Positions 55,233 to 55,690 of a stretch of 64,000 nucleotides of DNA are shown here, piece by piece. The notes under the pieces are model-generated. The model saw only the letters and a list, made by a program, of their open reading frames with translations. It was not told where the DNA came from and ran no database searches. The stretch is from Planctomycetota bacterium (GTDB lineage Bacteria > Planctomycetota > UBA8108 > UBA1146), in assembly GCA_032128395.1 (NCBI GenBank), contig JAQBGV010000184.1, positions 3,907 to 67,906 on the forward strand, written 5' to 3'. The number at the start of each line of letters is the position of its first letter. The first letter of the stretch is position 1. Made by a program: the position numbers and the translations under genes.

Positions 55233-55318
55233 GCCGAGGTGGCGGAATTGGCAGACGCGCTAGGTTGAGGGCCTAGTGGGCCGAGAGGTCCATCCGGGTT
55301 CAAGTCCCGGTCTCGGCA
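55233..55318 (+). tRNA. tRNA-Leu, anticodon GAG, long variable arm, no encoded CCA
   Basis: Cloverleaf read by eye: acceptor GCCGAGG/UCUCGGC, D-arm, anticodon stem CTAGG/CCTAG with loop TTGAGGG, long variable arm, T-arm CCGGG-TTCAAGT-CCCGG. Confidence 0.85.
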
Positions 55319-55360
55319 TTTCAATTTCCGCCTTGGCGGAGATTGAAATGGTGTTTTTTT
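55319..55360 (+). terminator. Intrinsic terminator immediately after tRNA-Leu
   Basis: Hairpin TTTCAATTTCCGCC/GGCGGAGATTGAAA (one G-U) followed by a T7 run. Confidence 0.55.
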
Positions 55361-55532
55361 GCATTTCCGCTGACGCGGAAATCGCCTTTGGATCGGGGTC
55401 GACTATTCCGAATAGGGCCCTGGGAAATGGTGTTTTTTTTGCATTTCCGCTGACGCGGAAATCGCCTTTGGATCGGGGTCGACTGTTCCGAATAGGGCCG
55501 TAGGTCGGGGTCGACTATTCCCGATAGGGCCC
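55345..55532 (+). repeat. Two full (79 and 80 bp) and one partial tandem copy of an AT-richer unit containing a T7-8 run, hairpin ATTTCCGC-tgac-GCGGAAAT and near-palindrome GACTATTCCGAATAGGGCC
   Basis: Direct comparison of 55345-55423 with 55424-55503 (near identical) and the partial third copy 55505-55532. Confidence 0.65.
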
Positions 55533-55665
55533 TTCTTGATTCTCGTGCGGGTCTTGCTCCTCTTGCCTTCCGCCCCTGCTTCCCTTCTTCTCCCTCCACC
55601 GTCTTCCCTCCTTCGTTCTCCCTCCTCCTCTCCCCTTGGCTCCCCAACCTCTCCTGTCTCCGCTA
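55531..55665 (+). other. About 135-bp polypyrimidine (CT-rich) tract immediately upstream of the aminotransferase gene
   Basis: Continuous run of mostly C/T on the + strand: ccttcttgattctcgtgcgggtcttgctcctcttgccttccgcccctgcttcccttcttctccctccaccgtcttccctccttcgttctccctcctcctctcccc... Confidence 0.6.
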
Positions 55666-55690
55666 CGATTCCGTCGGGGGAGGAACCACC

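Follow-up and report, generated by a model that had tools for sequence, protein, structure and literature searches.

What occupies the gap between a tRNA gene and the protein-coding gene behind it, when that gap is AT-richer than its genome, tandemly repeated and closed by a long pyrimidine-rich tract? The question is raised by a 510-bp spacer in a 64-kb stretch of DNA from a Planctomycetota bacterium (contig JAQBGV010000184.1; "the window" hereafter means this whole stretch of 64,000 nt). The spacer separates a gene of the RND efflux family from an aminotransferase gene, and holds a tRNA-Leu(GAG) gene together with its trailer. A preliminary description, made from the sequence alone, had offered several readings of the trailer, namely attachment-site (att) remnants, a miniature inverted-repeat transposable element (MITE), stacked terminators or a triplex-forming (H-DNA) region, with a local regulatory duplication as the fallback. 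We favour, with moderate confidence, the explanation that the locus is a tRNA-Leu gene followed by a fast-evolving, transcription-insulating spacer, which was built by slippage or unequal recombination and is not a mobile element. The best-fitting category for the spacer is a plain intergenic variable-number tandem repeat (VNTR), that is, a local tandem duplication which involves a terminator.

Copy number of the tandem repeat in near-identical assemblies

The repeat array begins 26 nt past the tRNA, within the hairpin of a predicted terminator (T1, described below); its features are listed in Table 1. Each 80-bp unit contains the 3' arm of T1 (GAAATGGTG), a run of seven or eight Ts, a hairpin designated hp2 and a 29-nt box. 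The sequence GTCGACTATTCCGAATAGGGCC occurs at 55398, 55478 and 55510 with 0, 1 and 2 mismatches respectively, and the box copies are 93-100% identical, non-palindromic flanks included. In the shuffled window the box was found 0 times, hp2 on average 0.02 times and a looser 13-nt core 0.45 times, and no further copy of box, hp2 or 13-nt core was detected within the 64 kb. Both Tandem Repeats Finder (TRF) and the motif search bear out the preliminary description of tandem AT-richer repeats of about 80 bp with a T7-8 run, an 8-bp hairpin and three boxes.

The aminotransferase of the window is 100% identical to the protein P0001, which is encoded on contig JAQBCW010000113.1 of assembly GCA_032124895.1 (L002/L090) and on Logan contigs (L003), and a look-up with the shikimate kinase protein of the same neighbourhood returned the same contigs only. 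At the nucleotide level L002 shows 1 mismatch in 6516 nt relative to the window (99.985% identity) and L003 shows 1 mismatch in 5831 nt. The order tRNA - repeats - C/T-rich tract - aminotransferase recurs in both L002 and L003, and the junction between the RND gene and the tRNA was seen again in another contig, L091. The arrays differ in length: L002 contains four units of hp2 plus box before the final box as compared to two in the window, a difference of +195 bp. TRF resolved the L002 array into nested periods of 116 bp (1.9 copies, 99%) and 79 bp (2.9 copies, 98%), and the 116-bp unit carries a second, truncated T1 hairpin inside a linker that is missing from the window. The two periods add up to the observed difference (116 + 79 = 195 bp), so that one event of recombination or slippage between identical units interconverts both alleles. 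The repeats are a young, species-level local tandem duplication, the copy number of which varies between assemblies. This outcome is closest to the fallback of the preliminary description, except that the fallback presumed an absence of variation, and near-identical assemblies carry two or four units. Comparison of the tRNA flank across relatives and near-identical assemblies, a type of check which had been put forward, did bring out this length difference, but without association to any mobile gene. A third assembly of the species is represented by P0121, a one-residue variant of the aminotransferase (A182D) encoded on a 122,855-bp NCBI contig.

Like bacterial VNTRs or minisatellites, the array is arranged head-to-tail, its units are 96-100% identical and its alleles differ by whole units, and we find no essential difference from these elements. 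The last of these features, or even part of the array, might be an artefact of assembly, either a collapse in the window or a mis-expansion in the metagenome-assembled genome (MAG): short-read assemblers collapse tandem repeats, L003 begins within a repeat unit, and multiple contigs end in this spacer. We nevertheless regard such an artefact as unlikely. The array is present in three assemblies (the window, L002 and L003), the distal units being identical, and the L002 linker (GGGTCGGGGGTGATGGTGTTTTCCGCC...) is a unique sequence which mis-stacked window units cannot yield, marking the long allele as real sequence. The breaks of the Logan contigs L087, L091 and L092 fall at the tRNA anticodon or close to it, L002 starts slightly further into the tRNA, and k-mers shared among tRNA-Leu genes would explain such a pattern. 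An assembly artefact, moreover, can touch the copy number only and not the existence of the array.

Contig ends were observed inside the tRNA-Leu gene at position 1 of L087, 6176 of L091, 1 of L092 and 1 of L002. Other tRNA-Leu genes with a common 5' half are the probable cause of these internal breaks and hence of the fragmentation of the locus in short-read assemblies. The tRNA spacer repeatedly causes contigs to break when metagenomes of this clade are assembled.

Predicted termination signals behind the tRNA gene

Relatives that share the gene neighbourhood of the window were used for comparison, with aminotransferase identities of about 78% (L004, L005 and L087), 76% (L086), 71% (L088 and L089) and 59% (L092). 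The tRNA-Leu(GAG) gene of the preliminary description was confirmed by ARAGORN and Rfam, which find it to be the sole tRNA of the window. A scan of 55100-55800 against Rfam, at gathering thresholds and also with E up to 10, returned the tRNA only, with no RtT element and no riboswitch. The promoter sequence CTTGACACCCCC...CCTATGATCGC is kept 5' of the tRNA-Leu gene in L088, L004 and L087 and is conserved wherever a locus includes that region, the gap between the -10 element and the tRNA ranging from 17 nt in the window to about 220 nt in L088. It is likely that the tRNA is transcribed independently, from this strong promoter of its own.

Two small duplications were observed around this promoter. 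In the window, a perfect 10-nt tandem duplication (GAGCGATCTT x2, 55169-55188) lies across the TGA that ends the RND gene (55178-55180) and provides the TTGA of the -35 element of the tRNA promoter; it resembles a small junction duplication. In L088, 26 nt of the tRNA-Leu 5' end recur without mismatch at 2997-3022, some 100 nt before the real tRNA and within the unusually long promoter-to-tRNA leader of that locus.

T1 lies directly behind the tRNA, and its hairpin begins in the last three bases of the tRNA itself. The predicted fold is strong (-21.9 kcal/mol, z = -4.76 against shuffles), and the element has the make-up of an intrinsic terminator, being a stable, GC-containing hairpin with a U-rich run within 0-3 nt, 3' of a gene on the same strand. 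It is textbook-like in its GC-cored 15-pair stem and in the T7 run just 3' of the gene. Only four T runs of at least 6 were found on both strands of the window, two in this region, outside coding open reading frames (ORFs), and two others (36366 and 42301) inside coding ORFs, a placement that rests on a rough gene map of the window. The small number of noncoding T runs makes hairpin-plus-T-run terminators seem almost unused in this 64-kb segment, and T1 is the only element predicted with conviction to act as one.

The stacked terminators of the preliminary description are supported in part: one canonical terminator (T1) stands, and the later T runs are duplicated tails behind weak, irregular structure. 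The T8 run is preceded by an irregular 50-nt structure, the fold of the whole unit (z = -1.8) is no better than that of shuffles, and the run is absent from the terminator-scan calls. The hairpin hp2 was not called by the scan either and has just CGCCTTTGG after it. The duplicated units differ from tandem terminators: they keep the tail, i.e. the 3' arm and T run, and lack the full stem, or they carry hairpins (hp2 and the box) with weakly U-rich tails in place of a proper U-tail.

The duplication re-iterates the 3' arm and T run of T1, hp2, which is paralogous to the T1 apex (72% identity for hp2 copy 1), and the box, which is predicted to form a hairpin. It would have arisen in place, by replication slippage or by unequal recombination between repeats. 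Most likely the repeats add weak back-up termination or protective hairpins at the RNA 3' end, and they may otherwise be near-neutral. The locus would accordingly present a terminator region that evolves by self-duplication in a segment where hairpin-plus-T-run terminators are otherwise almost absent.

The trailer may be viewed as three layers, the C/T-rich tract being the third after T1 and the unstable tandem duplication, and one whose RNA is predicted to be nearly free of structure. The tract is 84% pyrimidine, and no other stretch of at least 80 nt, on either strand of the 64 kb, reaches 82% pyrimidine. It had been described as an uninterrupted tract of about 135 bp that runs up to the ribosome-binding site; it is indeed C/T-rich throughout its length of 137 nt, but it is not pure, since 22 purines interrupt it and its longest pure pyrimidine runs measure 22 and 19 nt, the two longest of the window. 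The best 78 nt of the tract have a C/G of 44/5 (8.8), which is the extreme of the 64 kb. The RNA is predicted to fold with -9.6 to -14 kcal/mol per 131 nt as against a window mean of -49.9 +/- 7.7, and the tract is the least structured of 3194 tiles of 131 nt on both strands. TRF detected cryptic periods of 7, 14 and 27, which give it the appearance of a decayed simple repeat. The G+C content at third codon positions (GC3) of the ORFs in the region is 0.53-0.57, below the 0.83-0.86 of the neighbouring genes, which argues that the repeats and the tract are noncoding.

RhoTermPredict looks for a 78-nt window with C/G > 1 and regularly spaced C, the top class being at least 3 (PMC6407284). By its excess of C over G and its regularly spaced C across 78 nt, its lack of structure and the absence of a coding signal, the tract has the sequence properties of a Rho-utilisation (rut) site. 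Like rut sites as defined by those criteria, it is found behind a transcription unit and consists of at least 78 nt of untranslated, unstructured sequence with much C and little G; it differs from typical rut sites in a more extreme C/G, a higher T content and the cryptic 7/14/27-nt periodicity. The second least structured stretch of the window (43550-43850, - strand) is likewise C-rich, with a C/G of about 51/23 and a predicted fold of -18 kcal/mol per 131 nt, and it overlaps an ORF (43562-43921, - strand) with a G+C content of 0.35 at second codon positions (GC2).

A hexamer of the form TA(C/G)(G/C)AT is present 7-75 nt upstream of the aminotransferase ATG in 8 of 8 loci (the window, L004, L005, L086-L089 and L092). 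From this conservation we infer that TACGAT is the -10 element of the aminotransferase promoter, which would place the C/T-rich tract upstream of the promoter and outside the main 5' untranslated region. In L004 and L005 the hexamer is just 7 nt from the ATG, and this suggests that their mRNAs are leaderless. Sequestration of the Shine-Dalgarno-like sequence by the tract was considered and rejected: the minimum-energy fold does pair the two, but with z = +0.3 against shuffles, and the probable promoter lies between them.

Transcription that passes T1 and the repeats might be stopped by Rho at the C/T-rich tract. Since the tract is located upstream of TACGAT, read-through from the tRNA promoter would then be halted before or at the aminotransferase promoter. 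Wherever the 3' flank of the tRNA was available in relatives (L088 and L004), the sequence immediately behind the tRNA, read on the tRNA strand, is rich in C and poor in G; its first 80 nt have a C/G of 34/12 in L088 and of 42/15 in L004, where the tRNA is inverted. The equivalent C/T tract of the window is far more extreme, and there the AT-richer block stands between it and the tRNA. Based on the properties of the tract, the trailers of the relatives and the near-absence of T-run terminators, we propose that Rho-dependent termination behind the tRNA may be ancestral, and that the species of the window added an intrinsic terminator which was later duplicated. The few T runs and the C-rich trailer would fit a lineage in which most termination depends on Rho.

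Several points weigh against the explanation of the spacer as a fast-evolving insulator of transcription. Termination, its dependence on Rho, the aminotransferase promoter and the mechanism of expansion were all deduced from sequence features. The C-rich trailer is found in two relatives only and is far milder there, and the C/T-rich tract also resembles a decayed microsatellite, which needs no function. The canonical features of a terminator belong to T1 alone and the structure before the T8 run is no better than shuffles, so that the duplicated units may be functionless. One of the assemblies could have collapsed the repeat, which would account for the difference of two versus four units. 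A repeat block of about 50% G+C is what a foreign insertion would also look like, and there may be dispersed copies in the source genome beyond the 64-kb window.

Table 1. Features of the tRNA-Leu spacer and of the corresponding loci in relatives (window positions unless a relative is named)
Feature	Position	Strand	Basis or remark
tRNA promoter, TTGACA-16 nt-TATGAT	55187-55214	+	11/12 consensus positions; ends 17 nt 5' of tRNA
tRNA-Leu(GAG), type II, long variable arm, CCA not encoded	55232-55319	+	ARAGORN; Rfam RF00005, 49.4 bits
T1, predicted canonical intrinsic terminator: hairpin 55317-55350 (15 pairs), GTG, T7 at 55354-55360	55317-55360	+	Terminator scan
80-bp tandem repeat, 2 units	55345-55504	+	TRF 55345-55499: period 80, 1.9 copies, 97% matches; repeat search agrees
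hp2 copy 1, ATTTCCGC-TGAC-GCGGAAAT	55363-55382	+	Perfect 8-pair; -12.7 kcal/mol, z = -2.7
Box copy 1, TCGGGGTCGACTATTCCGAATAGGGCCCT	55393-55421	+	Core palindrome CTATTC-C-GAATAG
T8 run, duplicated terminator tail, possible weak second terminator	55433-55440	+	Preceded by long irregular hairpin (CGCC...box...GGUG)
hp2 copy 2	55443-55462	+	Motif search
Box copy 2, CTGTTC variant	55473-55501	+	Repeat and motif search
Box copy 3, CCCGATAG variant	55505-55533	+	32 nt after copy 2
C/T-rich, G-poor, unstructured tract; candidate Rho-utilisation site or spacer	55528-55664	+	137 nt; 67 C, 48 T, 18 G, 4 A
TACGAT, -10-like hexamer, probable aminotransferase promoter	55664-55669	+	Sequence conservation; role inferred
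Shine-Dalgarno-like GGGGGAGGA	55676-55684	+	6 nt before ATG; read from sequence
Class I/II PLP-dependent (aspartate-type) aminotransferase	55691-56860	+	Pfam PF00155, E = 8e-76; GC3 0.83
tRNA-Leu(GAG), L004	4588-4675	-	
tRNA-Leu(GAG), L087	1-36	-	
tRNA-Leu(GAG), L092	1-38	-	
tRNA-Leu(GAG), L088	3098-3185	+	
Simple repeat, L004	4685-4738		CGTTCCCGCGG 11-mer x4.9
Simple repeat, L086	1-108		TCCGGC x8, in C/T-rich stretch
Simple repeat, L089	1-30		14-mer CCGCTCTGTCCCCC x2
Simple repeat, L088	3499-3537		16-mer x2.5

Other explanations of the boxes, the repeat block and the tract

The boxes could also be operators, i.e. binding sites for a dimeric protein that recognises the 6-1-6 palindrome CTATTC-C-GAATAG and controls either the aminotransferase promoter or the tRNA gene, with the number of copies (three in the window and five in L002) tuning the effect. 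One copy has a perfect core palindrome, chance would yield 0 boxes where three are found, all of them are located 5' of the putative aminotransferase promoter, and the 32-nt spacing of boxes 2 and 3 amounts to about three helical turns. However, the near-identity of the copies, which extends into their non-palindromic flanks, shows them to be recent duplicates, and their multiplicity is therefore not independent evidence for operators. The substitutions in copies 2 and 3 hit the arms of the palindrome and degrade them, the -10-like hexamer lies about 145 nt downstream of the closest box centre, and relatives with the same gene pair and hexamer do not have the box. Outside this locus, the box pattern had no match in the rest of the 64 kb, in JGI metagenomes or in IMG/VR, and only one, chance match (in a Mycobacterium MAG) among 185,579 GTDB representative genomes. 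An operator function thus appears decidedly unlikely.

A mobile origin would make the AT-richer block the remnant of a MITE, or an att scar at the tRNA 3' end, which was later tandemly amplified. The 3' flanks of tRNA genes are known integration sites. The block has a G+C content of 49-53% in a 65% genome, it is placed exactly between the tRNA 3' end and C-rich sequence of the kind that abuts the tRNA directly in relatives, and the rest of the window lacks T-run terminators. Against this, the tRNA 3' end (23 nt, up to 3 mismatches) was found just once in the 64 kb. Alignment of the tRNA with the repeat block gave a score at chance level, 192 of 500 shuffles scoring as well, and a derivation of the repeats from the tRNA was rejected on this account. 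The block is not flanked by terminal inverted repeats, the inverted repeats found being internal hairpins only. There is no integrase or transposase among the flanking genes, which are the same housekeeping and efflux genes in relatives, and synteny is intact on both sides. With relaxed mismatches allowed, no trace of the unit, the box, hp2 or T1 was seen in L004, L005, L086-L089 or L092, which marks them as lineage-specific; hp2 had no match in IMG/VR, and the whole repeat block had none by BLASTN against phages and plasmids, so that related sequence was absent from every collection searched. The T1 apex (TCCGCC-TT-GGCGGAGA) does resemble the CCGCGGAGACT that L004 and L088 carry in their tRNA trailers, a weak likeness which permits an origin in place. 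Since mobile genes, a duplicated tRNA 3' end, flanking inverted repeats and similarity to the tRNA are all lacking, neither the att-scar nor the MITE reading of the preliminary description is supported, and we consider a mobile remnant quite improbable.

The relatives point to an unstable spacer. In the window and in L088 the tRNA points the same way as the aminotransferase; it is inverted in L004, L087 and L092. Orientation does not follow aminotransferase identity (78, 78 and 59% in the inverted loci; 71% in the direct one, together with the window), which implies that the tRNA cassette was probably inverted more than once. A different simple repeat is found in each of L004, L086, L088 and L089 (Table 1), indicating that the spacer is slippage-prone and weakly constrained. 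With its cassette inversions, a partial tRNA duplication and repeats particular to each lineage, the hypervariable spacer is a possible marker for strain typing. These observations could be taken much further, by regarding the tRNA-Leu cassette (promoter, tRNA and C-rich trailer) as a repeatedly inverting module and the copy-number-variable hairpins and boxes in the species of the window as a tunable insulator or protein-binding array, which would subject the aminotransferase to VNTR-driven contingency regulation. If this were true, the array would set the amount of tRNA-promoter transcription that reaches the aminotransferase, but we hold this extension to be very unlikely.

It is hardly credible, finally, that the C/T-rich tract modulates the aminotransferase promoter through DNA structure (an H-DNA triplex, or a + strand i-motif with a - strand G-quadruplex): the tract does contain two pure pyrimidine runs longer than any other in the window, it adjoins the -10-like hexamer, and among arrays of C3+ tracts in the window its seven at 55573-55645 make up the longest if loops up to 12 nt are allowed, but the H-DNA proposed in the preliminary description is unlikely for a sequence that is broken by purines and shows no mirror repeat (arms of at least 7 nt, spacer up to 8 nt), no G-quadruplex or i-motif pattern occurs within it at canonical loops up to 7 nt, and L004, L005 and L087 have the same promoter hexamer with no such tract beside it. 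Our preferred explanation, a tRNA gene with a locally duplicated, insulating spacer, would clear a suspicious-looking region of being an integration scar, a MITE or a triplex element.

Comparison with known systems and gene neighbourhood

The closest specific precedent for the array is the tyrT-tyrV locus of E. coli, where 178 bp x 3.1 distal repeats encode rttR/tpr. On NC_000913.3, TRF placed the array at 405-963, where it abuts and overlaps tyrV (945-1029) at the 3' end. In both cases, a tandem array lies at the 3' end of a tRNA, between this strongly transcribed tRNA and the next gene. Termination in the tyrT repeats is reportedly Rho-dependent, according to literature of 1978-1981; in the window, the rut-like tract comes after the repeats. 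The two systems also differ in that tyrT units start with a copy of the tRNA 3' end, while the window units have no similarity to the tRNA. The unit of the window measures 80 bp and not 178 bp, it has no Rfam RtT match and no coding potential, and it belongs to an uncultured planctomycete and not to an enterobacterium. A search of the literature on tyrT repeats and on planctomycete terminators gave nothing directly useful.

Repetitive extragenic palindromes (REPs) and the bacterial interspersed mosaic elements (BIMEs) that they form are likewise short, imperfect palindromes clustered intergenically behind a gene, and may serve as 3' hairpins. REPs, however, are dispersed, with tens to hundreds of copies, and their orientation alternates within BIMEs, whereas the copies in the window are direct, adjacent and confined to one locus.

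The named homologues of the aminotransferase are all from MAGs labelled Planctomycetota, with identities of 52-57%. In a metagenome scan for aminotransferase loci, almost all among the matches listed were distant homologues without the tRNA. Downstream, the aminotransferase gene is followed by genes for a multi-PDZ protein, shikimate kinase, prepilin peptidase, OmpA and EF-G, and the relatives keep the order RND-RND-[tRNA]-aminotransferase-PDZ protein-shikimate kinase-prepilin peptidase-OmpA. Upstream of the spacer lie two tandem AcrB-family RND genes (48501-52094 and 52091-55180) with a 4-nt overlap. This tandem pair recalls MdtB/MdtC, and the arrangement is also kept in L004.

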